DNA of 32,000 bases. Source: an archaeon (GTDB lineage Archaea; Iainarchaeota; Iainarchaeia; Iainarchaeales; 1-14-0-10-31-34). This document shows positions 1 through 23,635 of this stretch, piece after piece (positions within the stretch are counted from its first letter, which is position 1; every line of letters begins with the position of its first letter). Below the pieces are notes generated by a model. It worked only from the letters and a program-made list of their open reading frames with translations, was not told where the DNA came from and searched no databases. The stretch spans positions 90,001 to 122,000 of the forward strand of contig JAJRVL010000004.1 in the NCBI GenBank assembly GCA_024277355.1. Direction: 5' to 3'. The position numbers and the translations under genes are program-made.

Positions 1-2494
1 CTTCTGCAGTTGAAGAAACACACACATCATAATTTCTGTTTCCAATTAAGTCTCCAGGAACCACATAATCATAATTTATTGTTATATTAGATAAATCCTC
101 AAAACTTAATTCAGAAAAATAAATTGAATTAACTGCTTTTTTTGCTGAAAGATTCTGCAAACTTATTCCTGCTTTAAGATTTGAAACTTTAATTGAATCA
201 ACTATTTCATTTGTTAATGAATCTCTTACAATAACAAAAAAAGAAGATGAATCAACAAAACCATTATTTTGTATTTTTGCAGTTAAACCGACATTTGATC
301 CAGGAGAAACTAATTTTCTATCAAAGTTTGCTTCACTTATTTTTAAGCTTACAAAATTACTGTATTTAAATAAAACTGAAGAAAGATTATTGTTTAATTC
401 ATCTGATTCAGCAAAAGAATTATCATAATCAACAAAAGCAGTAATATTATTTTCTACTTCAGGAATAGAAGAATAAGGCAGAATAAAAGAAAATTCCTGT
501 GATTCTTTTGGATTAATTGAACCAACTAAATCTGAAAAAATAATATTGCTTTCATTTATTTCTTCAATAAAAAAATAAACTTTAACTTGAGGAGAAATAA
601 ATTTACCGTTATTCCTTACTGTCAATAAAACTTTAGCATCTTCTTTTTCAAATAAAACGTCTTTTTCAAAACTAAATGATTCAAGCAGTAAGTCAAATCC
701 ATTATCAATTATTCCATCACCATCATCATCTATTCCGTTTTCTTCTTCTTTTGAAACAACTTTCAAAAACAAGGAATCAGAATCATTGAAAGGATTTCCA
801 TCTGTTTCTGTTCCATAACAATCAGAAGTAATTTTTATTTCTGTTTCACCTGAATTAAATCCAAGTAATTCAGGCATAAAATAAAAACCTGAATTATCTT
901 TTCCTGTTAAATTCCATGAATACAAAGAAGAAACATAGCTTTTTGGAAGAACTTTTTGTTTTCCGTTTACTGTAAATAAATAAGAAAAGCTAACAGATGA
1001 ATCAATAAATTCAAGCAAGGAATCTGAATTAAATACATCTTGTTTACCTGAAAAAACTAAAATTAATTCTTTTTCTTTTTTTTCATCTGAAACATTAACA
1101 CAAAAATTTTTACTGCTGAACTCATTAAAATAATCTTTATTTTCTCCTAATTTTGTCGTAATATCAAAAGGAATTACAATAAAAGAAGGAATTTGTTTTG
1201 AATCAAACCTGAATTTTTTATTTCCCTTTAAGTCAATTACAGGAAAAATTTTTTCATTTGAAGAAGAAAAAATAAATTCAGATAATTCAACTGAATAATC
1301 TGTTTTGCAGTCTTCATCTGTTTTTCCGTCTAAATCATCATCTAATCCATTATAACATAGTTCTTTTATTTCAGGATTAGATGAAACAACATTAAAAGAA
1401 AAAGAACCTGAATTATTATTTTTTGTTGCTTCATGAACTAAATTTAGTTTGTCAACTGAAATACTAAAATTTTCTGTTCCGCTTAAACCAAAAGAAGAAA
1501 CAAAAAAAGTTATTGTTTTTTTTTCGCCTGAATTTAATCCATAAACCATTTTTGATTCAATTGCTTTTCCCTGTGAATCTAAAAGAGAAACAACAAAATC
1601 AGAAGAAATCCCGCTTAAACCATTATTTGAAATAACTGCAGTTACAGGTATTTCTTCTCCTTGATTAATTAATTCAGGGAAATCCAATGAAGAAACAATT
1701 AAATCCGGATAATCAGATGACGCATTAAATAAAACTTCTTTTTGAAGTAAATTATTGTTTTCATTTTGTTCTTCAATTTCAAAAGCAGAATCAATTACTG
1801 CTTCAAAAACATGAGTTCCAGGAAAAACACTTGAATTAAATTCAAATAAAACTTCTTTTGTTTGACTTTGAGTTAAACCAAAAATTCTTTTTTCTCCGAT
1901 TAAAACTTTACCTGAATCAGAATTCAAATATAATGAAACAGTAAACGGCAATGAATCTTTTTTACCTGAATTAACTGTTTTAACTTTAATTTGAGTTGTC
2001 TGTCCTGTTGTAAGTGAATCTGAAACTTCAATTAAAGGAATTAAATCAGGTTTATTTGTTGCAATATTTAAAGCTGAAACTTTTGAATCAAAAACTGAAG
2101 GTTTATTATATTTATCAAATAACACTACTCTGACAGTATAACTTCCATCTTTTGCATCAGTTGAAATACCGCATACATCTTCAATTAAATTTGTTCCTGA
2201 AGTTTTCTGGCAGACTATTCCTGAATAAGTATTGCTTACAATCCAGCCCATTCCATTAACTATTTTAGTGCAGACTGAATTAGATAAATCTGTGTCTTCA
2301 TAAATATCTATTGCATAAGCTAAAGGACAGGAATAATTATAACTGAAATTTACTGGAACTTGTTCTCCTGCAGCAAAATCATAAGTATAATCAGATAAAA
2401 TATTAACAGGTTTATTAGAAATAACTCCTTCAGATAAAGCTGAAACACTGGAAAACAGCATTAAAAAAATTAAAATAATAATTGTATTTTTCAT
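1..2494 (-). CDS. Secreted CARDB-repeat cell-surface protein; C-terminus runs off the window (3'-partial)
   Basis: Missing from the supplied ORF track because it has no in-window stop. The ATG at 2494..2492 opens a frame I read without stops down to position 2 (831 codons). The N-terminus MKNTIIILIFLMLFSSVSALSEG is signal-peptide-like. At least four modules carry CARDB hallmarks: (K/Y)PDLI..., a V.N.G strand, and a terminal D...E..E.NNN motif (AVIDSAFEIEEQNENNN, VDKLNLVHEATKNNN, VDYDNSFAESDELNNN). A GAAGGA SD-like element lies just upstream of the ATG. Confidence 0.8.
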   Translation of the reverse strand, partial: MKNTIIILIFLMLFSSVSALSEGVISNKPVNILSDYTYDFAAGEQVPVNFSYNYSCPLAYAIDIYEDTDLSNSVCTKIVNGMGWIVSNTYSGIVCQKTSGTNLIEDVCGISTDAKDGSYTVRVVLFDKYNKPSVFDSKVSALNIATNKPDLIPLIEVSDSLTTGQTTQIKVKTVNSGKKDSLPFTVSLYLNSDSGKVLIGEKRIFGLTQSQTKEVLFEFNSSVFPGTHVFEAVIDSAFEIEEQNENNNLLQKEVLFNASSDYPDLIVSSLDFPELINQGEEIPVTAVISNNGLSGISSDFVVSLLDSQGKAIESKMVYGLNSGEKKTITFFVSSFGLSGTENFSISVDKLNLVHEATKNNNSGSFSFNVVSSNPEIKELCYNGLDDDLDGKTDEDCKTDYSVELSEFIFSSSNEKIFPVIDLKGNKKFRFDSKQIPSFIVIPFDITTKLGENKDYFNEFSSKNFCVNVSDEKKEKELILVFSGKQDVFNSDSLLEFIDSSVSFSYLFTVNGKQKVLPKSYVSSLYSWNLTGKDNSGFYFMPELLGFNSGETEIKITSDCYGTETDGNPFNDSDSLFLKVVSKEEENGIDDDGDGIIDNGFDLLLESFSFEKDVLFEKEDAKVLLTVRNNGKFISPQVKVYFFIEEINESNIIFSDLVGSINPKESQEFSFILPYSSIPEVENNITAFVDYDNSFAESDELNNNLSSVLFKYSNFVSLKISEANFDRKLVSPGSNVGLTAKIQNNGFVDSSSFFVIVRDSLTNEIVDSIKVSNLKAGISLQNLSAKKAVNSIYFSELSFEDLSNITINYDYVVPGDLIGNRNYDVCVSSTAE

Positions 2495-2538
2495 ATTCCT
2501 TCACTTAATAGTTAATTTTATTCTTAATAAACTTTATC

Positions 2539-3762
2539 TTAACTCAACTCCTGCTTATTTTTCAGTTCAGTCATCCTATTTTCAAGTTTATCTAATTCTC
2601 TGTTATAATTTTCATACTGCTCTAAATAAACATCTCTTGAAATAATTTGTTTATTGAAATAATCATCCTGTAATTTTTTCATTAAAATCAATAATTTTTT
2701 TCTTTCTCTTTTATAAAAAATTCTTCTTACAAAAGTTTTTCCTTCTTTAAATGAAACAAAAATAACATAAAAAATGAATATTACAGGAAAAATATATACA
2801 ATTGCATTTTGTGCAATAAAATAATATAAATGGCCTTTTGGCTCTAAACTTAAAGCTAAATTCCCTGAATTAAAATACTGGTCTTCAGCTAAAACATTAA
2901 CATAAAATATTTCTGCATTTAAATCTTCAGTTGAAATTACAATAAAATAATTGCCTGACTCATTTTTCTGCAAATTAAATTTTTCATTATTATATTCAAC
3001 CCAAACTTTTGCATCAGGTACCGAAACATTATCAGAATAAATCGGTTTAACTTCTAATATTAATGGACTGCCAAAATTAAATTCATTAATTAAAGGTTTA
3101 ATTAACTGGATTTTAATTGGAACAAGCCTTACATTAAAAGAAACAATATTGCTTCCTCCATTTTTTTCTTTAGTTCCTGAAAGAGCTGTAACCATTAAAC
3201 CTTTTTTTTCTATTGCAGCATCAACAGGAATATTTATGTTTTCATAATAATAAATTCCGTTTCCTTCAAAATACATTCTTATTTTATTTCCATTAAAGTC
3301 CCAAAAATAAACTGTTGCATTATTTACAGAAATTCCTGCATCAGTTACTTTAACTCTTACATCAAATGACTGAGTTCTAAAATAAGAAGAACTAGCAGGA
3401 CTAATAAAATCAACTCTAAGGTATTCGCATTTAACTGAACTGTTAACTCTAAACCTTAATTCTTTTTCTTCTTCCTGATCTTTAACTAAAACAACCCAGT
3501 CTCCTGAAGGATCATTGCATGAAATAAAATGCTTAAAAGAAAAAAAACCTTTTTCATCAGGTTCAATTACAGCATTTAATACTGTTTTGTTTCCAGGCAA
3601 AGCATAAACCAAAAAATTAATTTTTCCTGTAGAAGAACCATTTAAGTCCATAAATTCTCCTTTTTCATAGCTCCCTTTTGGAAGTTCAACTGATAAAGAA
3701 GAAACAAAAGAAACAAAGAAAAACAAAAAAAATACAAAAAGAATTTTATTTTTTAATCCCAT
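2539..3762 (-). CDS. Type I single-pass surface protein: signal peptide, Ig/MG-like beta-rich ectodomain, TM helix, 69-aa cytoplasmic tail with SHOCT-like coiled motif
   Basis: N-terminal hydrophobic signal KILFVFFLFFFVSFVSSLSV. C-proximal TM helix YYFIAQNAIVYIFPVIFIFYVIFVSF. Tail: KKLQDDYFNKQIISRDVYLEQYENYNRELDKLENRMTELK. Ectodomain pattern (V.V.D..G..V.NA.V......G.Y) and tail are paralogous to the next gene. SD-like GAAGGAAG lies upstream. Confidence 0.75.
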   Translation of the reverse strand: MGLKNKILFVFFLFFFVSFVSSLSVELPKGSYEKGEFMDLNGSSTGKINFLVYALPGNKTVLNAVIEPDEKGFFSFKHFISCNDPSGDWVVLVKDQEEEKELRFRVNSSVKCEYLRVDFISPASSSYFRTQSFDVRVKVTDAGISVNNATVYFWDFNGNKIRMYFEGNGIYYYENINIPVDAAIEKKGLMVTALSGTKEKNGGSNIVSFNVRLVPIKIQLIKPLINEFNFGSPLILEVKPIYSDNVSVPDAKVWVEYNNEKFNLQKNESGNYFIVISTEDLNAEIFYVNVLAEDQYFNSGNLALSLEPKGHLYYFIAQNAIVYIFPVIFIFYVIFVSFKEGKTFVRRIFYKRERKKLLILMKKLQDDYFNKQIISRDVYLEQYENYNRELDKLENRMTELKNKQELS

Positions 3763-3791
3763 AAATCATCAACTTCCTTCTTTTTTTTCTT

Positions 3792-5885
3792 TTAAACTGC
3801 TTTCTTTAAGTGTGTTTCATTTTCTTTTTTTTCTGGTTGTTCTTCTGATTTTTTTTCGGTTTCTTTTGCTTTTTTTGGCATTGAAAATAATCCAGGAATC
3901 TCTTCATCTCCCTGAACTTTAAAAGTATTTTGTTTTTTTCCGTCTTTTACTTTAAACATTGATTCTAATTCTTTATCATCAAATGAATCTTCTACTTTTT
4001 TTCTTTCACCAAAAACTTCTTCATCTTCAACATCTTTAATTCCTTCTGTTTCCTGAGTTTTCTTAAACGATTCAATTGCTGAATCAATATCTCTTAACTC
4101 AGAAGAATACTGAGACAATAAAGAATAATATTGTTCGTTTCCAACTGCGCCTAAATTAAAGTATTTTTCCTGTAAATCGCTTTTTAATTTTTCCAGATCC
4201 TTTTTTCTTTTTTTCAGTGAACTTAACCTGTCCATTCTTTTTCTTATAACTATAATAACTACAATAATAAAAACAAAAGCAAAAATAACTGAAAGAAACA
4301 ATAAAGGATTTTCTCTGAAATAATACTCTAAAGTTAATTCTCCAGTTACTTCAAATAATTTAGTAAAAGTAATTGAATTACCAAAAGCATCTGATGCTTT
4401 AACATTTAATAATAATTGTCTTGCTTCAGATAAATCTTCATTATTTACAACATAAGAAAAATAAAATACTCCTTGTTCTTTTTCTGCTGCAAAAATATTT
4501 TTATCATTTATTTTAATTGAAACTTTAGCTTTGTTTAATGGTTTTCCATTTTCATAAGAAAATTTTAATTTAAATTTTAATTCTTCACCTAAAGCAGCTG
4601 TTTCTTTTTTTGGTTCAAGCAAAACAGGAATAATTTTTGCATTATCCACTGTAATAGTTAATTCATTTGAACCCCCGTATTTAATTGAACCAATTGTTTT
4701 TCTTGCATTAATTAAAATTTTTTGTTCACCTAAAGGAAAATCAAACGGAATTAAATAAGACAAAGAATATTTTCCATTTGAAACCATTCTTAAATCAACT
4801 TCTTTTCCATCAGGAAACAAAGCAATTACATCTGCATCTTCAACTGGTTTTTCATCAAACAATATATCCACTAAAAGTTTTATTTCCTGTCCTCGTCCAT
4901 AAAGTTTTTCATAATCAGAAAAAGTTACATCCATAAAAATTGTTCCGGTTTCCCTGCTTACAATAATATTTTTTTCTTTTAAGCCTTCGTTGTCAAAAGA
5001 ATCTGCTCCTGAAACTCTTAAAATCCAGTTTCCTTCAGGATAAATTAAACTTGTTCTCTGCTCTAAAGAAAAAAATCCGTTTTCATCTGATTTAGTTTTA
5101 TTTTCAAGAATTTTTATGCCTTTATTTAAAGCAGAAACAGTAATTACAGTTGAAATTGGTTTGCCTCTTTTAAATAATCTTCCATTAAAATTAATTATTT
5201 CTCCTAAAACAAAATTATTTTTATCTATTTCAAAATTTAAATCAAGAGAAGGATTAACTTTAACAATAAAATTTTTTACTGCACTAACTCCTAATTTTTC
5301 TGCATAAATTTCTGAAGCATAATCTGCTTTAACTGTTAATTCTGAAACCAAAAAACTTACTCCATAAACTCCATCATGTTCTTTTCCATCTAAATGATTT
5401 CCATCATCATACATTGGAATATCTCCTGCAAAAGTTTTAACCCTAACATTTGCATTTCTTGCAGTTACGCCGTCAGCTTTAACTTTAGCTTTAAATGTAA
5501 TTTCATCTCCCCTCAAAAAAATATTTGAGTCAGCTGGTTCAAGTAATTCAATTGTAATTGTTGTTGGAGCACAATCAGAATCACAGTTAGCAAAATCTTC
5601 TCCTGATTCACAAATATTGTTTCCGCAGCAATAATATTTTATTTGAGCACGGCATAAACCAGTTAAACAACTGTATTCTTTACATACGTCTCCCTGTACA
5701 TCCCCTGAACAAGTTCCGCAGTCACCAGAACAAGTGCATTTATCTTCGCCTGAATCACAGGTTCCATTATTATTGCAAGTAGATAAATCCCATATTAAAG
5801 GAGTATAATTATTAAATAATTCAGCAAAACCTACTGGAAGCAGTAAAAGCAAAAAAATTAATCCAAAAACACTAATTTTATTCAT
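3792..5885 (-). CDS. Type I single-pass surface protein: signal peptide, Cys-rich module, 4-5 Ig/MG-like repeats, TM helix, 150-aa cytoplasmic tail (SHOCT-like motif plus acidic/lysine-rich end)
   Basis: The track starts at a TTG (5909). The ATG at 5885 gives a much better signal peptide (MNKISVFGLIFLLLLLPVGFA) and has a GGTGA SD 9 nt upstream. There are 14 Cys in residues ~45-113. Repeats follow the pattern G(D/E).h.h...G.P...A.V.......G.Y. TM helix: LLFLSVIFAFVFIIVVIIVI. Tail: LKSDLQEKYFNLGAVGNEQYYSLLSQYSSELRDIDSAIESFK. Confidence 0.8.
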   Translation of the reverse strand: MNKISVFGLIFLLLLLPVGFAELFNNYTPLIWDLSTCNNNGTCDSGEDKCTCSGDCGTCSGDVQGDVCKEYSCLTGLCRAQIKYYCCGNNICESGEDFANCDSDCAPTTITIELLEPADSNIFLRGDEITFKAKVKADGVTARNANVRVKTFAGDIPMYDDGNHLDGKEHDGVYGVSFLVSELTVKADYASEIYAEKLGVSAVKNFIVKVNPSLDLNFEIDKNNFVLGEIINFNGRLFKRGKPISTVITVSALNKGIKILENKTKSDENGFFSLEQRTSLIYPEGNWILRVSGADSFDNEGLKEKNIIVSRETGTIFMDVTFSDYEKLYGRGQEIKLLVDILFDEKPVEDADVIALFPDGKEVDLRMVSNGKYSLSYLIPFDFPLGEQKILINARKTIGSIKYGGSNELTITVDNAKIIPVLLEPKKETAALGEELKFKLKFSYENGKPLNKAKVSIKINDKNIFAAEKEQGVFYFSYVVNNEDLSEARQLLLNVKASDAFGNSITFTKLFEVTGELTLEYYFRENPLLFLSVIFAFVFIIVVIIVIRKRMDRLSSLKKRKKDLEKLKSDLQEKYFNLGAVGNEQYYSLLSQYSSELRDIDSAIESFKKTQETEGIKDVEDEEVFGERKKVEDSFDDKELESMFKVKDGKKQNTFKVQGDEEIPGLFSMPKKAKETEKKSEEQPEKKENETHLKKAV

Positions 5886-5944
5886 TAAACATTTCACCGC
5901 AAACTTCAATTAAATTTATTTCAAAAAATTCATTCATTAATTTT

Positions 5945-6796
5945 TCACCACAAAATTTCATCTGTTTTCTTTTTTTCTTTTACTTTTTCAAAAGTTACGC
6001 CTTTATCAGTTAAAGAATAAGGAAGCAAAGTTTTTGAGTGATTAGTACAACGCATTTTCAGTATTTCCACTGCTCTTCTTCTTGAATTACCTGTTTTAAC
6101 ATTATATAATACTATTACGCCGTCAGCTAAAAATTCTTCTATTCCTGTTCTTGAATAAATTCCTGGGTCTTGTTCAGTTTCAGAAATAATAAAATTAACT
6201 GAATCATACTGGTTTAATGAATCAAACATATGCTTAATGTAATACCTGTAATTTTCAGAGTTCCCCATGAATGCAACACTTAAAGCAGACAAAGAATCAA
6301 CTACAATTTTATCAGGAACAAAAGGCAATTCAAGCTGTTCAACCTGAACCAATAAAGCTCTTCTTTGTTTTAATAAAGAAGCTTCAACACTTCTTGCAAT
6401 TTTAAATGGATTAATTTTTAATACAGCAAATTTTCCTTTTTCTTCAAATTTAGCTAAATCCCAGCCATAATTGTTTCTCATATGTCTTTTGAGTTTTTCT
6501 GCTGTTTCTTCAAATAAAATATAAACTGCTTTTTCTCCTTTTAATAAACTGTGATACAAAGACTGCATACAAAAAGTGCTTTTTCCTGTTCCGCATCCGC
6601 CTGAAATCAAAATAGTTGAACCTCTTTCAATGCCTCCTGCATCTAAATGAGAATCAAATTCAGCAACTCTTACAGGCAAAAACTCAATTTTTTCTTTTCT
6701 TTTCTGCCTTCTTTCCTTCATATCCTCTAATTCTTCTTCTTCAATACTTCCAGGTTCAATTTCTTCTTTTCCTGCAAACTTAATTCCAAAAGGCAT
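5945..6796 (-). CDS. KaiC/RecA-superfamily ATPase (single-domain, COG0467-like)
   Basis: Walker A ISGGCGTGKSTF. Walker B-like KIVVDSLSAL. KaiC-family C-terminal signature ILKMRCTNHSKTLLPYSLTDKGVTF (compare KMRG..H......F.It..Gi). No signal peptide or TM helix. Charged N-terminal extension EEEELEDMKERRQKRKEK. Confidence 0.85.
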   Translation of the reverse strand: MPFGIKFAGKEEIEPGSIEEEELEDMKERRQKRKEKIEFLPVRVAEFDSHLDAGGIERGSTILISGGCGTGKSTFCMQSLYHSLLKGEKAVYILFEETAEKLKRHMRNNYGWDLAKFEEKGKFAVLKINPFKIARSVEASLLKQRRALLVQVEQLELPFVPDKIVVDSLSALSVAFMGNSENYRYYIKHMFDSLNQYDSVNFIISETEQDPGIYSRTGIEEFLADGVIVLYNVKTGNSRRRAVEILKMRCTNHSKTLLPYSLTDKGVTFEKVKEKKKTDEILW

Positions 6797-6942
6797 ATTA
6801 TCCCTTTTAATAAAGCACTAAACTAATATAAAAAGCTATCTAAAAAGTATATAATAAATATATATTAAATAAATCAGGAAAATTAGGTTAAGTTAAGCTA
6901 AAAACATTCCTTATTATTAAATTTGCTTTCTTTTATTTTTTG
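6797..6942. promoter_or_regulatory. Divergent promoter region between the KaiC-like ATPase gene (-) and traB-family gene (+)
   Basis: 146-nt spacer, almost pure A/T. On the minus strand, TTTTATATT (plus-strand 6826-6834) lies 30-38 nt upstream of the ATPase ATG. TTATTATTAAAT lies ~21-33 nt upstream of the TraB ATG at 6943. Both fit archaeal TATA positioning. No experimental support. Confidence 0.35.
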
Positions 6943-14052: not shown

Positions 14053-14973
14053 ATGCCAAAAATATTTCATAGAAATAAACTTAAACCACTTATTTTAGCT
14101 AATCCTGGAAGTTCATTAAAACAAATAAAAGAATTATTATTTCAGAAAACAAAACAAAAAGCAGATATTGCAACAGTCTACAGAGCAAAAAAAGAATTAA
14201 TTAAATCAGGCAAACTTGTAATTGGAAAACACACTGTTTTGAATTCAACAGAAGCAAGAATACTTAAAGCAATTTATTATAATCCTAAAATGCCTAATTC
14301 TAAAAAATATAATTCCAGAATTGCTATAATAGCAGACGCCGGCGAAAGAACAGTAAGGCAAATAAGAAAAAGATTAGCTGAAGGATTTTACGGTAAACAA
14401 GAATTTTTTATAAGCCCAAGACAAGAACTGCTTGAAGCTGTTGAAAAAGAAAACAAATCAAAAAAATACTATTCTAAAAGAAAAACTGCCCAGACTTCAA
14501 ATAAAACTCCAAGACAAGAATTAACTGAAACTATTAAAAAACAAAATGAACAACTAAAGAAACAAAAACAAAAAAAACTTGCTGCTGAAACAAGAAGCAC
14601 TAAAGTAAAAATGACTACTAAAAGCAAACAATATCAAAAAAGAATCGCAGCTACTATAATGGTAATTGAAAACCCTAAACTTAATTCTCTTCAAATATCA
14701 AGATTATTTACAGGAAAAAAATTTGGAAAAATATCAGCTAATAAAATTGAACAAATAAAAAACAGATTAAACAAAAGAAATAAAACAAAACTTCTAAAAA
14801 GAATGATAATAGACAGCACAATATTAGATAAGCCAAATATTAAACCAAGCACAGCAATAAAATTTCTTGAAAAACAGGGATTCCCAAAAATTCCAGAAAA
14901 AACAATTAGGTCAAGAAAAGTTATATTAATGAAAATGAATTTAATCCCAAAAGAAACTAAATACACTTTTTAA
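14053..14973 (+). CDS. Basic protein with about four HTH-like modules and an internal PRQEL repeat; function unknown
   Basis: HTH-like segments: SLKQIKELL...IATVYRAKKELIKSG; ARILKAIY...ERTVRQIRKRLAEG; LNSLQISRLF...ANKIEQIKNRL; PSTAIKFLEKQGF...EKTIRSRK. Repeat: SPRQELLEAVEKENKSKK and TPRQELTETIKKQNEQLKK. Lys/Arg-rich. Confidence 0.55.
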   Translation: MPKIFHRNKLKPLILANPGSSLKQIKELLFQKTKQKADIATVYRAKKELIKSGKLVIGKHTVLNSTEARILKAIYYNPKMPNSKKYNSRIAIIADAGERTVRQIRKRLAEGFYGKQEFFISPRQELLEAVEKENKSKKYYSKRKTAQTSNKTPRQELTETIKKQNEQLKKQKQKKLAAETRSTKVKMTTKSKQYQKRIAATIMVIENPKLNSLQISRLFTGKKFGKISANKIEQIKNRLNKRNKTKLLKRMIIDSTILDKPNIKPSTAIKFLEKQGFPKIPEKTIRSRKVILMKMNLIPKETKYTF

Positions 14974-15076
14974 AAAAATTAATACAACAGTTCAATTATT
15001 TCCTGAAAAACAAACAAATATATTTAATTCAAAAAAACGAAAAGAATTAATAAAGGAAAAGCACTTATTTTAGCTG

Positions 15077-17158
15077 ATGGCTTTTACAACAGATGAATTA
15101 ATTCAGATTGGATTAATTGTAGGAATAATAATTGTTTTTGGTTACACTATATTCAATTACTTAAAGAACAAAGGATTATTAGAAAAATTAACCCAAAAAA
15201 CAGAAAAAAGAACTGAAAGACCTGCAGCTAAATCATTATCTTTTGCAAAAAACAGAAAAATGAGAGGATTAGAAAAATTAATTCCAGACAAAAAATTAAG
15301 TAAAAAACCAATTTTAACTGAATTAAGAATTGAAAGCACTGAAGGATTGTGGGAACCAGAAAAAGAACCTTTAATAGAAAACAAATCTGAACAAAAAACA
15401 GAAATAAAACAAAAAGAAATTCCCTTTAAACCTGAAATAAAATCAAAAGAAGAAATTAAATTATCTGAATTAAAGCCTGAATCAAAATCTTCAGCAAAAG
15501 GAATATTATCTGACATTATATTAAAAATTAAAACAGAAAAACAGGAAATTTTAAAACCAAAAATTGAGCCAGCAAAACCAAAAGAAGAAACAAAAAAGTT
15601 TGAATTCAAAAAAGAAAAACCAAAAGATAAACTTGAAATTAAAAAACCAGAAATAAAACCAATTGAAAAAAAATTAAAAACGGAAACAAAAGAAAAAGGA
15701 TTTTTTGAAAAATTAGGGTTTAATTTAAAACTTAAAGCTAAACAAAAAACAATAGAAAAGAAAAAAGAAAACAAATTTGAAGAAAAATTAAAACAGTCAA
15801 TTCAGAAAAAACCTGAAATAAAAGAAAAATCAAAAACAGAAGGAAAAAAAACAGAATTAAAAGAAACAGAAAAAAAAGATTCAGTTAAGTCTTTAATTAA
15901 ACCTGCAGACGCTTTTGCTTTACCTGAAGAAAAAAATAAAACTAATGAATTAACTGTAGCAAGAAAATTAGAAGAAAAAATAAAAGGATATCAAGAAAAA
16001 GCCAGAAAAAGCCAGAAAAAACCAAAAACAAATGTTTTATTTGACAATCAAGAAGAAAAAGAAAAACATGAACAAAAATTCGTTCAAAAAATCCTTGAAT
16101 CAGAAGAAGAAGAGGAATTAGAAAAAATAAGCAAGGCAATAGACCCAAAAACAGACAAAAACTGGCAGAAAGAAAAAGAAGAAACAATTAAAGCGCTAAA
16201 AAAAGAATTCACTGATTTAGATAAAACAGAAAAAAAAGATTTATGGAAAAAACCTGAAGAAAAACAGGAAATTCATAAAAAAGAAGAAGAACAAAAAAAT
16301 AAATTAATTCCTAAAGCATTTCCTGAAAAACCAAAAACAATAATTCCTGAGATAAAAAAAGAAATTAAAACAATTAAACCAAAAAAAAGCTTTTTTGATT
16401 TTTTTAAAAGGAAAAAAACAGCAGGAAAAAAACATGAAATAAAACAAAAAGAAATTACAATTAAAAAATCTGAACCAGAAATAAAAAAAGAAATAATTAC
16501 TAAACCAACTGAAACAAAAAAAGAAAAAACAGAAATAAAAAACAAAAAACCAGTTGAATTAAATAAAAAAATTAAACCAGAAAAAAAAGAAAAAGAATTA
16601 ATTAAACCTGTTAAAGAAATTAAACCTGAAATAAAAAAAACAAGCACTTCAACAGAAGAATTAAATGCAGAAATGAGAAAACTAATTGAAGAACAACAAA
16701 AAGCCAAAGGAATAAAACCAAGAAAATTTAAATCAAGAAAAGAAACTGAAATTAAAGCTAAAGATATTGAAATCAAAAAAGAAGTTCCAATAAAAATTAA
16801 ACCAAAACAAGAAGAACATTCATTGAAACCTGAAATAAACGAAAAAATAAAACCACATTTCGAGAAAAAACAAGTTATCAAAACAGAAATAAAAAAACCT
16901 GAATTTAAACCTGAAATAAAAACAGAAAAAAAAGAAGAAACTAAACCAAAACAAAAAAAGAAAGGTTTGTTTGAAAGATTTGGATTAAAAAAAGAAAAAA
17001 TTAATTTAACTAAAGCAGAAGAAGATCAACTGCAAAAAATAATGATAGTTTTAAAAGGAAAAACGTCTGAATATTCAAGGGACGACATGAGAGATGCAAT
17101 GAAAAACTTAGGTTACACTGAAAAAATAATTGAAGAAGCAATAAAAAGGTTGTATTAA
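15077..17158 (+). CDS. N-terminally membrane-anchored protein with ~580-aa K/E/P-rich low-complexity spacer and a small globular C-terminal domain
   Basis: TM helix LIQIGLIVGIIIVFGYTIFNY. Recurrent KPEIK-type motif. Three amphipathic motifs: GFFEKLGF, SFFDFFKR, GLFERFGL. The C-terminal 50 aa (LTKAEEDQLQKIMIVLKG...MKNLGYTEKIIEEAIKRLY) are shared with the next gene. The stop overlaps the next gene's ATG. Confidence 0.65.
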   Translation: MAFTTDELIQIGLIVGIIIVFGYTIFNYLKNKGLLEKLTQKTEKRTERPAAKSLSFAKNRKMRGLEKLIPDKKLSKKPILTELRIESTEGLWEPEKEPLIENKSEQKTEIKQKEIPFKPEIKSKEEIKLSELKPESKSSAKGILSDIILKIKTEKQEILKPKIEPAKPKEETKKFEFKKEKPKDKLEIKKPEIKPIEKKLKTETKEKGFFEKLGFNLKLKAKQKTIEKKKENKFEEKLKQSIQKKPEIKEKSKTEGKKTELKETEKKDSVKSLIKPADAFALPEEKNKTNELTVARKLEEKIKGYQEKARKSQKKPKTNVLFDNQEEKEKHEQKFVQKILESEEEEELEKISKAIDPKTDKNWQKEKEETIKALKKEFTDLDKTEKKDLWKKPEEKQEIHKKEEEQKNKLIPKAFPEKPKTIIPEIKKEIKTIKPKKSFFDFFKRKKTAGKKHEIKQKEITIKKSEPEIKKEIITKPTETKKEKTEIKNKKPVELNKKIKPEKKEKELIKPVKEIKPEIKKTSTSTEELNAEMRKLIEEQQKAKGIKPRKFKSRKETEIKAKDIEIKKEVPIKIKPKQEEHSLKPEINEKIKPHFEKKQVIKTEIKKPEFKPEIKTEKKEETKPKQKKKGLFERFGLKKEKINLTKAEEDQLQKIMIVLKGKTSEYSRDDMRDAMKNLGYTEKIIEEAIKRLY
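15250..17000 (+). repeat. Coding low-complexity region (degenerate KPEIK / KKE repeats)
   Basis: Motif instances read directly: FKPEIKSKEE, KKPEIKPIEKK, KKPEIKEKSK, IIPEIKKEIK, SEPEIKKEII, IKPEIKKTST, LKPEINEKIK, KKPEFKPEIKTEKK. The DNA is A-rich on the sense strand, which generates long spurious antisense ORFs. Confidence 0.7.
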
Positions 17159-18312
17159 TGAATAAAATGAAAATTACTGCTGGATTAATTTTATTTTTAA
17201 TTGTATTAAGCGGCTGCATTGAATTAGCCAAAAACGGCGAAGAAACAATTTTATTAAATTACTCAAAAACTGGTTCAGTTTATTTTGAACACACAATTAA
17301 AGGAGAAAAAGGAGAATTATATTTTAACTGGGAAGGAGACTGCACAAATAAAGCAAAAGAAATTATTGACGCAAACATAAGTAATTTCCAAAAACAATCA
17401 TTAGACATACAAGGGGCAGCAAATTTAACTGAACCAGAAAAAACTGAATTAATTGAAGAAAACAACAGAAAAATCAATACTTTGCTTTCAATTAAATCAA
17501 CAGTTAAATGCAAAGTAGAAGATGACAATTCAATGGGTTTATTGGTTTATTCATTTAATTTAGCTCAAGGATTTGAAAACATTAAATTATTCAATGACAA
17601 TTACAGTATTTCTTTAGTTAAAGATGAACATAAAATTCAATCAACAATAAAAGTAAATAATACTGCAAACCAAAAAAACGGAAATTTACTTAAAAAAATA
17701 ATGATTTTTTCTGAAGGAAAAATTGAAAGTATTGAACCAAAAGACAAAATGACATTAAATGAAGGAATCTATGAAATTGACATGCTTGGAATGGACGGAA
17801 AAGAAATAACTTTAACAATAAATACACAAGAAAAAAATCCAGTTGTAATTATACCAGATAAACCAGATGCAATTTCAGTTTTAATTCAGGGATTTATGCC
17901 AAATAAAATAATTAGTTTAGAAAAAGAAGATTCAATTCAATGGATTCCAACAATTTTATTAGCTTTAATTATTGTAATTATTGTTTCAAAAGCAGTCAAA
18001 AACGTAAAACTTCCTGAAAAAACAAAACCAGTCCCAAAAAAAGAAGAATTAGAAGAAAAAATTCTTTCAAAAACCAAAAAAATTGTTACACCAAAAAAAG
18101 ATTTCAGTTATATGAAAGAAATAAAAAAATCTGAACCAAAAACACTTAAACCAAAATTCAACGAAGAAGAAAAAAAACAAATTAAAACAATAATACTGTC
18201 ATTAAAAGAATCATTCCATAACTATTCAAAAGAAGAAATAAAAAAAGCAGTAATAGGAAAAGGTTATTCATCAAAAATAAGTCAAGAAGTAGCTGATTTT
18301 TTCTACCCTTAA
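17158..18312 (+). CDS. Lipoprotein-like surface protein with C-proximal TM helix and a cytoplasmic tail ending in the same ~50-aa domain as the upstream gene
   Basis: Signal plus lipobox-like LIVLSGC. ~250-aa ectodomain. TM helix WIPTILLALIIVIIVSKAV. Lys-rich tail. Terminal domain: FNEEEKKQIKTIILSLKE...VIGKGYSSKISQEVADFFYP. The ATG shares one nucleotide with the upstream TAA (17158). Confidence 0.7.
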   Translation: MNKMKITAGLILFLIVLSGCIELAKNGEETILLNYSKTGSVYFEHTIKGEKGELYFNWEGDCTNKAKEIIDANISNFQKQSLDIQGAANLTEPEKTELIEENNRKINTLLSIKSTVKCKVEDDNSMGLLVYSFNLAQGFENIKLFNDNYSISLVKDEHKIQSTIKVNNTANQKNGNLLKKIMIFSEGKIESIEPKDKMTLNEGIYEIDMLGMDGKEITLTINTQEKNPVVIIPDKPDAISVLIQGFMPNKIISLEKEDSIQWIPTILLALIIVIIVSKAVKNVKLPEKTKPVPKKEELEEKILSKTKKIVTPKKDFSYMKEIKKSEPKTLKPKFNEEEKKQIKTIILSLKESFHNYSKEEIKKAVIGKGYSSKISQEVADFFYP

Positions 18313-18384: not shown

Positions 18385-18434
18385 AAAAATAAAAATATAA
18401 AAAGAATTAGTTGCCGGACTTTTTACAAGCCGGC
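18385..18434 (-). terminator. Putative metK terminator: GC hairpin overlapping the stop codon, followed by T-runs
   Basis: Minus-strand reading GCCGG-cttgtaaaaagt-CCGGC (plus-strand 18413-18434), followed by AACTAATTCTTTTTATATTTTTATTTTT. The GC-only stem is conspicuous in this AT-rich sequence. Confidence 0.4.
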
Positions 18435-19589
18435 TTCTTTTTTCAATAAATCTGTTTTATCAGTTTTTTCCCAGGTAAAATCAGGGTCATTTCTTCCAAA
18501 ATGGCCGTAAGCAGCAGTCTTTTTGTAAATAGGTCTTTTCAAATTTAACTGCTTTAAGATATCAGCTGGCTTTAAAGGAAAATGCTTTCTGACTAATTCA
18601 GCAATTTTGTCTTTAGAAATCTTTTCTGTTCCAAAACAATCCACATTAACTGAGACAGGTTCAGGAAAACCAATTGCATAAGCTAACTGAACTTCACATT
18701 TTGAAGCTAAACCTGCTGCAACAATATTTTTTGCAATATATCTTGCAGCATAAGCAGCACTTCTGTCAACCTTTGAAGGGTCTTTTCCTGAAAAAGCGCC
18801 TCCACCGTGTCTTCCAATGCCTCCATAAGTATCAACAATAATTTTTCTTCCAGTTAAACCTGCATCAGCATAAGGGCCGCCTCGAACAAAAGCACCAGTA
18901 GGATTAACATAAAACTTAGTATTTTCATCAATCCAATCCTTACAAACAGGCTTAATGATTTTTTCAATTACTTCAGATTTAATTGTATCATATTCAATTC
19001 CACCATTATGCTGAGTTGAAATCAAAATTGCATCAGCTCTTAAAGGTTTACCATTTTCATCATATTCAATAGTTACCTGGCTTTTGCCGTCAGGTCTTAA
19101 AAAATCAATTCCATTGCTTCTTCTTATTTCAGCTAATTTTTCGCATAATTTATGAGCCAAAACAATAGTTAAAGGCATTAATTCAGGTGTTTCATTACAG
19201 GCAAAACCATACATCATTCCCTGATCTCCCGCACCTTGTTCTTTAAATAATCCTTTTCCTTCAGTTACTCCTTGAGAAATATCAGGACTTTGTTCTGTAA
19301 TTTGAGTCCAAACTGAACAAGTTTCAAATTCAATACCATATTCAGCATCAGTGTAACCAATTTCTTTAATTGTATCTCTTACAACAGAAGGAATATCAAC
19401 ATAAGCTTTAGTGGTAATTTCACCAAAAACATTTACTCCTCCATTTTTTGTTGCTGTCTCGCAAGCAACTCTTGCTTCAGTATCTTGTGCAAAAATTGCA
19501 TCAAGAATTGCATCTGAAATTTTGTCACACATTTTATCAGGATGACCTTCAGTGACTGACTCTGAACTTAATAAAATTTTTTCTGCCAT
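18423..19589 (-). CDS. metK: S-adenosylmethionine synthetase (methionine adenosyltransferase), bacterial/eukaryotic type
   Basis: [34 protein letters not shown] and [23 protein letters not shown] are canonical MetK motifs. The real start is the ATG at 19589 ([10 protein letters not shown]...), preceded by a GAGGTG SD. The track's 19-codon upstream extension (MCCFLFIYF...) is spurious. Confidence 0.95.
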
Positions 19590-19655
19590 AAAAATACACA
19601 CCTCATTAATAAAAAATCTAAAATAGATAAATAAAAAACAACACATAACTTTAAA

Positions 19656-20348: not shown

Positions 20349-20561
20349 ATGAATACTAATCCAAATATGTCAAATTACAATAATTTTTATGCTAATGCTG
20401 ATTTATCAAAATACGCCGGAGAATGGGTTGCAATAATTAACAGTAAAGTTGTAGCTCATGGAAAAAACTTAAAAGACATTATGAAAAAAGCTAAGGAAAA
20501 AGATTCTACTATTACTCCATTTATTGCTAAAATCCCTTTAAAAGAAATCATGATTTGGTGA
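20349..20561 (+). CDS. Small (70 aa) protein, DUF5678-like by recollection
   Basis: The core YAGEWVAIINSKVVAHGKNLKDIMKKAKEK resembles small archaeal/cyanobacterial proteins of pattern (W/Y).GKWVAI.dgkVva.g.dl.e....A. There is a good SD. The stop overlaps the start of the next gene. The family name is from memory and unverified. Confidence 0.6.
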   Translation: MNTNPNMSNYNNFYANADLSKYAGEWVAIINSKVVAHGKNLKDIMKKAKEKDSTITPFIAKIPLKEIMIW

Positions 20562-20977
20562 TTTTTTTGTCTCTTTCTTTCAGATACAGGAAAGAAAAAT
20601 TCAAGAATAAAACAAGCTATTTTCCAAAAATTCCAGTATTACTTTATAACGAAGGAATTTCCATAGAAACTCCTGCATTACTTGATTCAGGGGCAACAGA
20701 TTTGTTTATTCCAAAAGAAATTGCAGAAGAATTTGAACTTAACTTAAGAAATCCAGATACTGCAGAAAGCTGGACTGGAAAATTTAAAGTCTGGGAATCA
20801 AGGATAGGAATAGTTGTAGGAAAAGGAAGCCAAACTTTTAGAAAAGTACTTCCCTGCATTGTTCCAGATAAAAAAGGAGAACACGATCAAGTTGTTCTTG
20901 GGAGAAGTTTCTTCAGATTTTTTGAAATTACCTTTAATGAAGACAAAAAAATAACAAAATTAAAAAGACTTGTCTGA
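20555..20977 (+). CDS. Retropepsin-like (clan AA) aspartic protease
   Basis: The active-site motif ALLDSGATDLFIP (D-S/T-G-A) and the C-terminal VVLGRSFFRFFEITFN (compare ILG.DfL..f.v.fd) are typical of single-lobe retropepsin-like proteases. There is no ATG, so the start must be TTG (20555) or GTG (20558), overlapping the upstream stop. Confidence 0.75.
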   Translation: MVIFLSLSFRYRKEKFKNKTSYFPKIPVLLYNEGISIETPALLDSGATDLFIPKEIAEEFELNLRNPDTAESWTGKFKVWESRIGIVVGKGSQTFRKVLPCIVPDKKGEHDQVVLGRSFFRFFEITFNEDKKITKLKRLV

Positions 20978-21080
20978 AAAAACTATTTAAGCTATTTTTC
21001 GCAGCACAGTTATATTTAAATATTTGTTTTAACTCTATAGTAATAACAAATATACATAAGTTTGTGTGTTTTGTGGTTTA

Positions 21081-21866
21081 ATGAAATTAAAATATTTAAT
21101 TCTTCCTTTGCTTTTGGTTTTTGCATTAAATGCAAATGCTTTTACTTCTGATTTACCTAATTTTATTAATTTTTATGAAGAACCTGAAACAATAAGTTTT
21201 TTTGTTGAAAATGATTCAGGAAGCATTCAGCCATTAAATATCAGTGTTTTTTCTCCTTTAGCTTATGAAATACAGGGAAAAAAGAATTTTATTGAATCAG
21301 GAGAAAAAATTCAGATTGACTTAGTTTTTTTTCCTAAAGAAGAATTAATTAATTCAGTTTATGAGTCAAGTGTTTTAATTGAATTAGGAAATGAAAAAAC
21401 AAAAAATAATTTTTCAATGTATTTTTTGAAAAGAAATTTTTGTCCAATGGAATTTAATGCAGAACAAAAAGGAAATTTAATTGAAGTTAAAGTAAAAAAT
21501 AATTCTTTTTATGAAACTAAACTGGAAGTTTTAGGATTAAAAAATAAAGAAAACTGGAGTATAGAAAAAAAAGTTTTTTCTTTTGATTCAGATGAAGAAA
21601 AAATCATTTCGTTAAGTGTTTCAGGTTTTGGTTCAGAAGAAAATAATTCAGTTTTAATTAAATGCAATGAATTAGAAGAAGAATTTAATGTAAAATTAGA
21701 AAGCAGGAATTCAAATGTTATTTCAGCAACAGGCAATGTTCTTGTCACTGAATTTGGAGAATTAACTGAACCAATTAATGTTGTTTTAATTGTAATTGCT
21801 TCAGTTTTATTGATTTTATTTATTTCAAGATTAGTTAAAAGATTAAACAAGGAGGAAATTAAATGA
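21081..21866 (+). CDS. Type I surface protein: signal peptide, two NEW3/CARDB-like beta-sandwich modules, C-terminal TM anchor
   Basis: The ATG at 21081 gives MKLKYLILPLLLVFALNANA (the track's GTG at 21066 adds 5 codons). Modules: ISFFVENDSGS...ESGEKIQIDLVFFP and IEVKVKNNSFY...DEEKIISLSVS. TM helix VVLIVIASVLLILFI with a short basic tail. ATGA overlap with the next gene. Confidence 0.7.
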   Translation: MKLKYLILPLLLVFALNANAFTSDLPNFINFYEEPETISFFVENDSGSIQPLNISVFSPLAYEIQGKKNFIESGEKIQIDLVFFPKEELINSVYESSVLIELGNEKTKNNFSMYFLKRNFCPMEFNAEQKGNLIEVKVKNNSFYETKLEVLGLKNKENWSIEKKVFSFDSDEEKIISLSVSGFGSEENNSVLIKCNELEEEFNVKLESRNSNVISATGNVLVTEFGELTEPINVVLIVIASVLLILFISRLVKRLNKEEIK

Positions 21867-23635
21867 AAAAATTAATGTTGTTTTTGATTTTGATTGCATT
21901 GCTTTCAAATGTTAATGCTTTAATTGAACCTGAAAAAAATATTGTTTCAGTGGCTTATGATGAAAGTTTTTCTGTTGCAGTTAAAGTGAAAAATGATTCA
22001 AATGAAAAAGCATTAATTCATTTAAGTTCTTTTAGTTCAATTAAAACAGATTTTTCGGTTAATGATTTTTATTTAAATGCAGGAGAAGAAACAGTTATTG
22101 CATTGAATATTCTTTCATATTATTATAACAGCAATACTAATATTGAATTAAGAGCAGAATACAATGGAATTACTGAATATGCTGATTTAACTGTTATTAC
22201 AGGAAACAGTTCAGGAAAAGTCAACTTAAAATATTACAAGCAGAATATATGCAGGAATGGATTAGATAAATTAAGTTTATGGATTAAAAATGATTCTTTA
22301 ATTACCCAAAAAATTAAGTTAAGTGCTGACTCAGAAGTTTTTTTGCCTTCAATTTACCCTGAATTAATTGAATTAAATGCAGGACAAGAAAGATTTGTTG
22401 AATTAGAATTATATTCAAATAATTCTTTTCCATTAAAAGATTATTCAGTTAATGTTGTACTTGAATCAGAAAATGAAATTACTTCAAGAGAAATATTTTT
22501 TGAGTTAACTGAATGCATTGAAATAGAAAAAGGATTTAGATTAATTATTCCTGATTCTTTTTTGAGTATTGAAAAAGGAGAAACCAAAAAAATTTATTTT
22601 AGTGCAAGAAATTTAAGTGATAAAGATAATGAAATTTCTTTTGCAGTTAAATCAGATTTAATTACTGAATTACAGCAGACTAAAACTGTGTTGGCTGAAG
22701 GAGAAACAAGAAGATACTGGATTGAAGTAAAAGCATTAAAAACTGATGAAGCAGGAAAACATAAACTTGAATTATATGCATTTAATCCTTTTATTGAAAT
22801 AAAAAAAATAATTAATGTTAATGTAAAAAAAATGCATGAAGTTAATGCAGAATTATTAACTGATAACCTTGAAATTGAAAGAGGCCATTCAGGTGTTTTT
22901 TCTTTGTTAATTGAAAACAAAGGCGATTATAAAGAAAAAATTGAAATAAATTATTTTTCTGAAGAAGAAATTAATGTTTTGTTTTCAGAAAACGATTTTT
23001 ATTTAAATGAAAAAACTGATAAAAAAATTTATTTTTCTATTAACCCTTTAGTTAATGCAGAATTAGGAGAAAAAGAAATTGAAGTTAAAGTTAATGAAAA
23101 AACAATTTTAGTTAATTTTAGTGTAATAGAAGAAGAAAAACCATTAATTACTTCAGGAGTAATTGAATTGCTTTCAGTTCCTGAAAAAATCACTTTAACT
23201 GAAGAAACAGAAATAAAGGTTCTAATTAAAAACATTTCAGGAGAAAAAATTGAAAATACATTCTTTTGGATTGAAGGCCTTCCTAAAGGAACTGCCTTTG
23301 AATCAGTTTCAATTAAAGAAATAAACAACGAAAAAACAAAAGAGTTTACTGGAAAAATTCTTTTAGATGAAAAAGCAGTAAAAGGAAGTTATAGTATTAC
23401 ATTAGTTTTTGAAAACAGTAAATTCAGACAAAAAAAAGAAATACAATTAATTATTCTGGAACAAGAAAAACAAGAAGAAAAAGAAATACATGAAAATGAT
23501 TTTCTTGCAGGCTTGATTTCTTTTGGTTCAATGGAAGGAATTGGATTAATTGTAATTGCATTAATTATTTTAATTTTGTTATTAAATCCAGGAAAACAAA
23601 AAGAAAAATGGAATATAAGGGGGAATAAAAAGTGA
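21863..23635 (+). CDS. Type I surface protein: signal peptide, ~5 NEW3/CARDB-like modules, C-terminal TM anchor
   Basis: Signal MKKLMLFLILIALLSNVNA. AAGGAGG SD upstream. Repeated h.h.h.N.(S/G)....h.h...........(F/L).L..GE...h.h.h pattern (for example VKVKNDSNE...LNAGEETVIALNI; WIKNDSLIT...LNAGQERFVELELYS; LLIENKGDY...). TM helix GIGLIVIALIILILLL. GTGA overlap with the next gene. Confidence 0.75.
   Translation: MKKLMLFLILIALLSNVNALIEPEKNIVSVAYDESFSVAVKVKNDSNEKALIHLSSFSSIKTDFSVNDFYLNAGEETVIALNILSYYYNSNTNIELRAEYNGITEYADLTVITGNSSGKVNLKYYKQNICRNGLDKLSLWIKNDSLITQKIKLSADSEVFLPSIYPELIELNAGQERFVELELYSNNSFPLKDYSVNVVLESENEITSREIFFELTECIEIEKGFRLIIPDSFLSIEKGETKKIYFSARNLSDKDNEISFAVKSDLITELQQTKTVLAEGETRRYWIEVKALKTDEAGKHKLELYAFNPFIEIKKIINVNVKKMHEVNAELLTDNLEIERGHSGVFSLLIENKGDYKEKIEINYFSEEEINVLFSENDFYLNEKTDKKIYFSINPLVNAELGEKEIEVKVNEKTILVNFSVIEEEKPLITSGVIELLSVPEKITLTEETEIKVLIKNISGEKIENTFFWIEGLPKGTAFESVSIKEINNEKTKEFTGKILLDEKAVKGSYSITLVFENSKFRQKKEIQLIILEQEKQEEKEIHENDFLAGLISFGSMEGIGLIVIALIILILLLNPGKQKEKWNIRGNKK

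Follow-up and report, generated by a model that had tools for sequence, protein, structure and literature searches.

Conserved linkage of a KaiC-like ATPase to tail-bearing surface proteins in archaea

The 32,000-nucleotide stretch of DNA analysed here (the window; positions 90,001 to 122,000 of the forward strand of contig JAJRVL010000004.1, assembly GCA_024277355.1, assigned to the Iainarchaeota) begins with a cluster of minus-strand genes, in which a gene for a KaiC-like ATPase precedes those for two type-I membrane proteins, g2 and g3. Both proteins end in the same element, a transmembrane (TM) helix followed by a cytoplasmic tail, and the linkage of the ATPase to proteins bearing this tail is far more conserved among archaea than the surrounding synteny. 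We lean towards reading the locus as a representative of a conserved membrane module with three components: two surface proteins that would together make up a receptor or adhesin, and the KaiC-like ATPase, which would be coupled to their tails. Judged from gene content, this module appears to be widespread in DPANN archaea and to occur in some Hadarchaeota as well. The genes and elements concerned are the following (aa, amino acids; ORF, open reading frame; nt, nucleotides).

5945-6796, minus strand: ATPase gene, 283 aa, single KaiC-like (RecA-superfamily) domain
3792-5885, minus strand: g2, long type-I membrane protein, 697 aa (ORF call and paralogy to g3)
2539-3762, minus strand: g3, short type-I membrane protein, 407 aa
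1-2494, minus strand: g4, CARDB-repeat surface protein, 831 codons seen, running past the window start
4065-4304, minus strand: g2 TM helix (4245-4304) and tail motif ...LQEKYFNLGAVGNEQYYSLLSQYSSEL... (4065-4217)
2563-2805, minus strand: g3 TM helix (2749-2805) and tail motif KKLQDDYFNKQIISRDVYLEQYENYNRELDKL (2563-2715)
6797-6939: divergent AT-rich intergenic region between the ATPase gene and a TraB/PrgY-family gene, with a TATA-like TTTATATT ~30 nt 5' of the ATPase start

Linkage of the ATPase to tail-bearing proteins

An alignment of C-termini defined the shared element as a TM helix plus ~60 cytoplasmic residues with the consensus L..E......K.LQ..YF..x.I....Y...M..Y...L. In the window, a hidden Markov model (HMM) of this element matched g2 (E 3e-31) and g3 (E 1.3e-27), which were the sole matches in the 32 kb. 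One genome per archaeal or bacterial species was scanned, and relatives of the ATPase at 38-84% identity turned up at 80 loci; all counts of tail-bearing ORFs given here cover these loci. ORFs in the related loci were called crudely by an in-house procedure; g3 of the closest relative, locus L001, was missed by the caller and recovered by tblastn only. Homologues of g2 or g3 were detected by BLASTP in 29 of the 80 loci, and the TM-plus-tail HMM matched ORFs in 53. The other neighbours of the window ATPase (TraB, GDH, Ogg and CARDB) recurred in just 1-3 of the 80. The tails were attached to g2/g3-like ectodomains in 31 loci, including ones from Hadarchaeota, Aenigmarchaeota and Nanoarchaeota, and to unrelated, much larger ectodomains in 22 loci from Woese-, Nano- and Pacearchaeota-type genomes. 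The pair in these 22 loci consists of a 1300-2500-aa protein with two tandem tail motifs and a 300-450-aa protein with one, and only the TM-plus-tail element is common to both ectodomain families.

None of the 74 tail-bearing ORFs counted is more than five genes away from the ATPase, and 56 are no more than two away. Where at least 4 kb were available on both sides, a tail-bearing ORF occurred no more than three genes from the ATPase in 29 of 37 loci. The order of the genes is not fixed: direct adjacencies comprised 24 cases of tail gene then ATPase gene and 16 of the reverse, at a median gap of ~17 nt, and divergent arrangements occurred as well. Neighbouring tail-bearing genes overlap in 21 of 28 pairs, mostly by 4 nt (ATGA), and in 22 of these 28 pairs the long gene precedes the short one; stop/start overlap was also found between some ATPase and tail genes. 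Several genomes carry two complete modules (for example L003 and L028, L015 and L024, L022 and L027). A proximity that outlasts rearrangement, duplication and the full replacement of the ectodomain is a classical signature of a functional, probably physical, partnership. Likewise, the occurrence of the same tail on unrelated ectodomains, and its duplication in the long Woese- and Nano-type proteins, calls for a common cytoplasmic partner. Same-strand runs with short gaps are common in small AT-rich genomes, and where a genome is compact, unrelated genes could come to lie side by side by chance. We give this explanation practically no credence, as it is contradicted by a linkage that is kept across phylum-level distances while all other neighbours change. 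A preliminary description of the window, made from the sequence alone, had set the persistence of this linkage in related genomes as one test of its module idea; with 53 of 80 loci, the linkage was retained far beyond residual synteny.

The arrangement of the window cluster that this description had given, four consecutive minus-strand genes with gaps of 59, 29 and 44 nt, agrees with the coordinates as we re-read them. So do its Shine-Dalgarno-like elements before each downstream gene, as purine-rich GGTGA, GAAGGAAG and GAAGGA stand directly 5' of the three starts. We placed the start of g2 at the ATG at 5885, with an in-frame TTG upstream at 5909 as the alternative. The reported lack of a convincing hairpin terminator also holds, as none was found between the cluster genes; this says little in an archaeon, as archaeal transcription ends at oligo-T tracts and the hairpin criterion is a bacterial one. 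The first gap holds a T6 run, the presence or absence of which is uninformative because runs of at least five T are so frequent on the cluster strand (~12 per kb). The divergent region 6797-6939 is probably the promoter of the cluster; the TraB/PrgY-family gene beyond 6939 was identified by Pfam search. The G+C content of the window is 23-33%, and its nearest relatives are DPANN archaea known from metagenome assemblies, under the labels Micrarchaeota, Diapherotrites/Iainarchaeum or just 'archaeon'.

The fourth gene, g4, matched the Pfam family CARDB in three stretches (E 1.8e-41, 140.9 bits versus a cut-off of 22.7). Synteny between L001 and the window extends from Ogg to CARDB, and the full-length g4 homologue of L001 has 1234 aa with two or three hydrophobic segments at the C-terminus. 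The preliminary description had presented g4 as a secreted CARDB-repeat protein and as an adhesin of the same-strand cluster. The CARDB domains stand; secretion is not established, given that g4 is incomplete and the L001 homologue ends in hydrophobic segments. The gene is not part of the conserved module, since it recurs beside the module only in L001. By its distribution, g4 appears to be a lineage-specific passenger outside the conserved module.

The ATPase, the surface pair and their tails

The ATPase matched the Pfam KaiC domain PF06745 (E 1.7e-49, 168.8 bits versus a cut-off of 26.6) with residues 43-270 against profile positions 4-227 of 231. Together with the Walker A motif this bears out its earlier classification as a single-domain KaiC/RecA ATPase. 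The following features were located in the gene, the three catalytic motifs being read from the sequence.

6776-6796, minus strand: N-terminal peptide MPFGIKF, conserved and followed by a variable charged linker
6575-6601, minus strand: Walker A motif GGCGTGKST, residues 66-74
6506-6517, minus strand: catalytic Glu pair, LFEE
6281-6307, minus strand: Walker B motif IVVDSLSAL

In an alignment of 28 sequences ranging from 47 to 87% identity, GGCGTGKST, FEE and VVDSLSAL are invariant, as are the individual residues G66, G67, G69, G71, K72, T74, E96 and D167. The ATPase retains all catalytic motifs, at 50-60% identity across phyla. The window ATPase stayed under every NCBIfam equivalog cut-off, including those for KaiC (NF006799, 130 bits versus 408; TIGR02655, 107 versus 546), KaiC_arch_3 (126 versus 249) and ArlH (NF052589, 45.9 versus 215; PRK06067, 49.9 versus 194). 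It also remained below the Pfam GvpD_P-loop cut-off (21.5 bits versus 24), and the window holds no gvp genes. A profile search of PDB returned KaiC (E 7e-73) and PH0186 (E 3.7e-39). In the AlphaFold2 (AF2) model, the core (residues ~38-272) reached a predicted local distance difference test score (pLDDT) above 90, and both ends (1-34 and 275-283) fell below 50 and are predicted to be disordered or flexible. The top Foldseek match of this model was the KaiC CI ring (TM-score ~0.86, target-normalised); PH0186 was matched as well. Pfam found no DNA-binding domain in the window ATPase. Anti-phage defence or viral origin was considered and set aside: the ATPase gave only generic RecA-fold matches (mad8 at E 2e-7, DnaB-like PHROGs), and g2-g4 gave none.

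The extreme N-terminus of the ATPase is more constant than the linker behind it. Of 120 family representatives, 28 open with MPFG[ILV][KR]F, the most distant of them at 52% identity and with a varying linker, and many other members begin with hydrophobic-basic peptides of the MGLFKK or MGLLKK type. Both kinds are candidate membrane-targeting or docking peptides. At the other end (5948-5959), close relatives keep a terminal LW or MW (EILW, ESLW, DLMW, DVLW) behind a Lys-rich stretch that varies; it may be a C-terminal docking residue. Lys-flanked hydrophobic-glycine motifs (GLFSMPKK, KKGLFSGFLQKK, KKGFFSGLFGKK, KKKGFILRL) recur in the tail extension of g2 (3870-3893), in linkers of ATPase and inactivated-KaiC paralogues (L009, L010, L022, L025) and at the C-terminus of the L001 CARDB homologue; they presumably resemble MinD-type membrane-targeting amphipathic peptides. 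None of the 120 representatives is a natural fusion of tail and ATPase.

g2 and g3 are paralogues, with 27% identity over ~400 residues in BLASTP (E 6e-21) spanning ectodomain, TM helix and tail. In g2, a signal peptide and a Cys-rich N-terminal region (residues 37-105) are accompanied by at least three beta-sandwich domains, and a TM helix (528-547) leads into a cytoplasmic tail of 150 aa. g3 has a signal peptide, beta-sandwich domains at 24-107, 116-212 and 217-309, a TM helix and a 69-aa cytoplasmic part modelled as a helical hairpin (AF2, pLDDT 84), in which the TM helix extends into the cytoplasm to residue 369 and a second helix follows the turn at 370-375. The g3 model matched macroglobulin (MG) arrays of complement C3/C5, immunoglobulin (Ig) arrays, giant adhesins and, at rank 47, an archaeal S-layer protein (7ptp); to judge from the model, these matches appear to be to generic structural arrays. 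The preliminary description's paralogous single-pass type-I pair, its Ig/MG-like ectodomains and its tail lengths of 150 and 69 aa, which we re-measured, were all borne out. For neither protein did a Pfam or NCBIfam family score above threshold. Searched with a profile built from g3 and close relatives, 1.84 billion representatives yielded 581 clusters at 50% identity (E<=1e-3), in two size classes of ~400 aa and ~580-1600 aa.

Within the tail, conservation in 78 sequences is highest, in g3 numbering, at Q365 (91%), Y368 (85%), Y379 (81%), F369 (78%) and Y386 (65%). Among 962 ORFs, the next-best unrelated ORF reached only E 7.7e-4 with the tail HMM, and no other TM or coiled-coil protein scored below that value. 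A 63-sequence tail alignment retrieved nothing at E<=1e-3 from a 5.8-billion-protein collection, a database size for which the element is too short. Two suspected identities of the tail were dropped: Pfam SHOCT was not matched even at E<=10 by the tails of g2, g3 and two Woese-type proteins, and a CdvA-like coiled-coil match was confined to one Woese-type tail and under threshold (E 0.003).

Tight operons and translational coupling suggest a stoichiometric complex, and this would suit a biogenesis or remodelling machine, in which the ATPase spends ATP to assemble, cluster, anchor or extract the surface pair, for example in a stalk or anchor layer below the S-layer or in an adhesion patch, with no transfer of information. 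The generic beta-sandwich arrays of the ectodomains, with their resemblance to 7ptp, would be compatible with such a role. However, characterised KaiC-family proteins (KaiC, ArlH, GvpD) are slow regulatory ATPases and not unfoldases or translocases, and the sensor and DNA-binding fusions and two-component neighbours of related ATPases, described below, indicate regulation. In Micrarchaeota, the S-layer protein has no membrane anchor of its own, and the study describing it proposes that another protein, anchored in the membrane, serves as the stalk (bioRxiv 10.1101/2021.04.28.441871), a part that g2 or g3 might play. Canonical S-layer identity of g2 and g3 was rejected, as Pfam and NCBIfam revealed no S-layer domains (PF05123, TIGR01564 type) and only the generic likeness to 7ptp remained; the S-layer protein of Micrarchaeota is a member of another family. 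We consider the biogenesis machine rather unlikely.

Genomic context and relation to known systems

In other lineages, the ATPase carries N-terminal additions, namely a small helical domain or, as in Woese-, Nano- and Pacearchaeota-type genomes, hemerythrin (PF01814, E 4.6e-12) or a winged helix (wHTH). In about 20 loci it lies near histidine kinases of the HAMP/PAS kind and receiver proteins that stand alone, and some neighbourhoods contain further KaiC and inactivated-KaiC (DUF7504) paralogues. Archaeal KaiC-like ATPases are predicted to be signal-transduction hubs (Makarova, Galperin and Koonin 2017, as cited in PMC5847659 and PMC6393860), a proposal with which the hemerythrin and wHTH fusions and the two-component neighbours fit. 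Like these hub ATPases, the one described here has a single KaiC/RecA domain and relatives with sensor or output fusions, inactivated paralogues and kinase or receiver neighbours; its constant partner is a type-I surface pair with a dedicated cytoplasmic hairpin, a partnership that none of the papers covered describes. The ATPase-receptor signalling module that the preliminary description had put forward is supported as far as linkage and signalling context go, with docking and host-contact sensing as hypotheses, and the CARDB gene falls outside.

Several observations weigh against coupling through the tails. About one third of the 80 loci have no tail-bearing gene; many of these lie on short contigs, but L038, L043, L046, L053, L071 and L078 lack one despite 10 kb on each side, so that coupling is not universal in the wider ATPase family. 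Across the wider g2/g3 family, the tail is not better conserved than the ectodomain (mean pairwise identity 0.25 versus 0.27) and exceeds it only among close relatives (0.66 versus 0.57). The score of the tail HMM is also partly compositional, reflecting a TM helix followed by a Lys/Glu-rich helix. Finally, the ATPases fused to wHTH domains (L042, L046, L058, L070) could be mere transcription regulators of their neighbours. This last point leads to a second explanation, in which the neighbouring surface genes are under the transcriptional control of the ATPase, acting by itself or together with wHTH or receiver partners, and the ATPase makes no contact with the tails of their products. Regulators are often encoded beside their targets, and some of the arrangements are divergent, as this would suggest. 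Yet regulation of this kind leaves unexplained why the same hairpin occurs on unrelated ectodomain families and why tail genes share stop/start overlaps with ATPase genes, and the window ATPase has no DNA-binding domain of its own. We therefore regard a mere regulator-target relationship as quite unlikely.

One parallel among KaiC-like proteins is offered by ArlH (FlaH), likewise a single-domain ATPase, which binds partner proteins at the membrane and is encoded after two paralogous beta-sandwich envelope proteins, ArlF and ArlG, much as the module here has a paralogous pair. KaiC families also associate with archaeal type IV pilus loci (PMC4858521; PMC9563170), and T2SSE and/or T2SSF genes occur within 10 kb of the ATPase in 6 of the 80 loci, directly downstream in L012. 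The ATPase could accordingly be an ArlH-like partner of an ArlI/ArlJ-type motor, with g2 and g3 as envelope components of a pilus- or archaellum-like apparatus. In contrast to this expectation, the ATPase is not an ArlH orthologue by the scores given above, the 32-kb window contains neither ArlI (T2SSE) nor ArlJ (T2SSF), and 74 of the 80 loci have no such gene nearby. The topology of g2 and g3 is also opposite to that of ArlF and ArlG: they combine a cleavable signal peptide with a C-terminal anchor and cytoplasmic tails, whereas ArlF and ArlG are anchored N-terminally. A pilus accessory role is very unlikely in our view. Taken together, the biogenesis and regulator-target explanations account for less of the evidence than coupling through the tails, and the pilus explanation fits few loci.

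The best sequence and fold matches of the ATPase are cyanobacterial KaiC (28-29% identity to CI) and Pyrococcus PH0186, with which it shares intact catalytic motifs. Unlike circadian KaiC, which joins CI and CII in about 500 aa, it has one domain in 283 aa and falls short of the KaiC equivalog, and no KaiB or KaiA families were among the Pfam matches of window ORFs (of at least 60 aa in 1-10 kb and at least 100 aa in 10-32 kb). A predicted secretion or membrane-remodelling complex, arCOG01314/arCOG02884, comprises a MoxR/GvpN AAA+ ATPase, vWA proteins and proteins with 2-4 TM helices (Makarova 2015, PMC5898192). It likewise places an ATPase beside membrane-anchored proteins with extracellular Ig-like domains; its components differ, none of the MoxR/GvpN, vWA or 2-4-TM proteins being found here, and we discarded it as an identity for the module.

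Further genes accompany the ATPase in particular lineages. Three or four KaiC/DUF7504 paralogues and coiled-coil proteins of ~135 and ~430 aa lie beside the tail pair in L015 (9581-13158), L008, L022, L023 and L025, and one 800-aa inactivated KaiC in Iainarchaeum-type loci shares the N-terminal helical domain of the ATPase. Pairs of small proteins (~105-140 aa, two or three TM helices; family 16) are found in Woese-, Nano- and Aenigmarchaeota-type loci, directly upstream of the ATPase in L037, L064, L070 and L073, and also in L035 and L036; they may be a further membrane component. L043, L050, L052 and L068 have a divergent pair beside the ATPase, consisting of a second KaiC-like gene (~223 aa) and a 110-aa AbrB/SpoVT-like protein. 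The T2SSE gene of L012 (11349-13142), directly 3' of the module in an Iainarchaeum metagenome-assembled genome, encodes a type IV pilus or secretion ATPase that has a 4Fe-4S ferredoxin domain at its N-terminus.

Elsewhere in the window, a second type-I surface set unrelated to g2 and g3 occupies 21066-26121 (plus strand): three genes with stop/start overlaps (266, 590 and 829 aa) and no Pfam family, each product having a signal peptide, a C-terminal TM helix and a short basic tail, and none matching the tail HMM. Three ORFs without a Pfam family at 14053-18312 (plus strand) show an extreme A-over-T skew (+0.35 to +0.57). One encodes a 693-aa protein with 26% Lys, 16% Glu and an N-terminal TM helix, which shares similar end motifs with a 384-aa product of the same region (...YSRDDMRDAMKNLGYTEKIIEEAI... 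and ...YSKEEIKKAVIGKGYSSKISQEVA...). A relation of the N-terminal helical domain of the longer ATPase paralogues to the C-terminal motifs of ORFs 15077-18312 was considered and dropped, the HMM giving no match at E<=10. An S-adenosylmethionine (SAM) synthetase at 18423-19646 (minus strand) matches PF00438, PF02772 and PF02773, which we take to be bacterial/eukaryotic MetK-type domains, and a retropepsin-like aspartyl protease (PF13975) lies at 20555-20977 (plus strand). A gene at 28794-31997 (minus strand) encodes a protein of 1067 aa that ends in an SLT lytic transglycosylase domain (PF01464, E 4.7e-12), a murein-cleaving enzyme without obvious substrate in its own archaeal cell that may be aimed at bacteria; genes for an FTR1 iron permease and a TrmB regulator (at 27920-28747 and 27159-27878) adjoin it.

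A possible link between the KaiC network and the cell surface

How might the three components work together? In the module that we favour, the long and the short type-I protein would form a heteromer, their genes being usually translationally coupled. Each chain would present to the cytoplasm, behind its TM helix, a helical hairpin with the signature L-Q-x-x-Y-F ... Y ... Y. A dedicated and catalytically intact single-domain ATPase, presumably hexameric by analogy with KaiC and PH0186, would be kept near the membrane by its short N-terminal peptide. We infer that it docks on the hairpins, so that its nucleotide state would be coupled to the state of the surface proteins. The module would then be a transmembrane signalling or regulatory device that ties the cell surface to the archaeal KaiC 'hub' network. 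As for the direction of signalling, bidirectional coupling seems favoured, with sensing from surface to cytoplasm as its primary task, and a role in host contact may be envisaged.

The architecture invites comparison with integrin alpha/beta, as a functional analogy only. There, too, two type-I chains with large multi-domain ectodomains and single TM helices offer short tails to a cytoplasmic reader; unlike in integrins, to which there is no homology, the cytoplasmic partner here is an ATPase, and heterodimer and adhesion are only supposed. A tentative extension would see an ancient integrin-like device common to DPANN archaea, a two-chain receptor or adhesin whose hairpins are gripped by a hexameric KaiC-type ATPase. 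Adhesion would be switched by ATP turnover and intracellular cues (oxygen or iron via hemerythrin, two-component signals), and contact would be reported inward. If true, the KaiC 'hub' ATPases of archaea would gain their first defined transmembrane partner, and the device would be a candidate machine for host recognition.

Few regulatory protein families have expanded as much in archaea as the KaiC-like ATPases, most of which are without a known partner (PMC4858521). The module offers a concrete and testable one, a short conserved tail with five signature residues, and links the KaiC network to the surface. Full-text literature searches, which did not cover Makarova, Galperin and Koonin (2017), returned no description of an ATPase and surface-pair module; within the literature covered, this transmembrane partner of a KaiC-type ATPase is conserved and previously undescribed. 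Our analysis also defines an uncharacterised protein family without a Pfam model, of which the g2/g3-type branch alone comprises ~580 clusters at 50% identity. The lineages that carry the module combine reduced genomes with a presumed life attached to hosts, and DPANN archaea depend on contact with other cells. Contact sensing or regulated adhesion are roles for which a surface-coupled module that such lineages retain, and sometimes duplicate, is a strong candidate.

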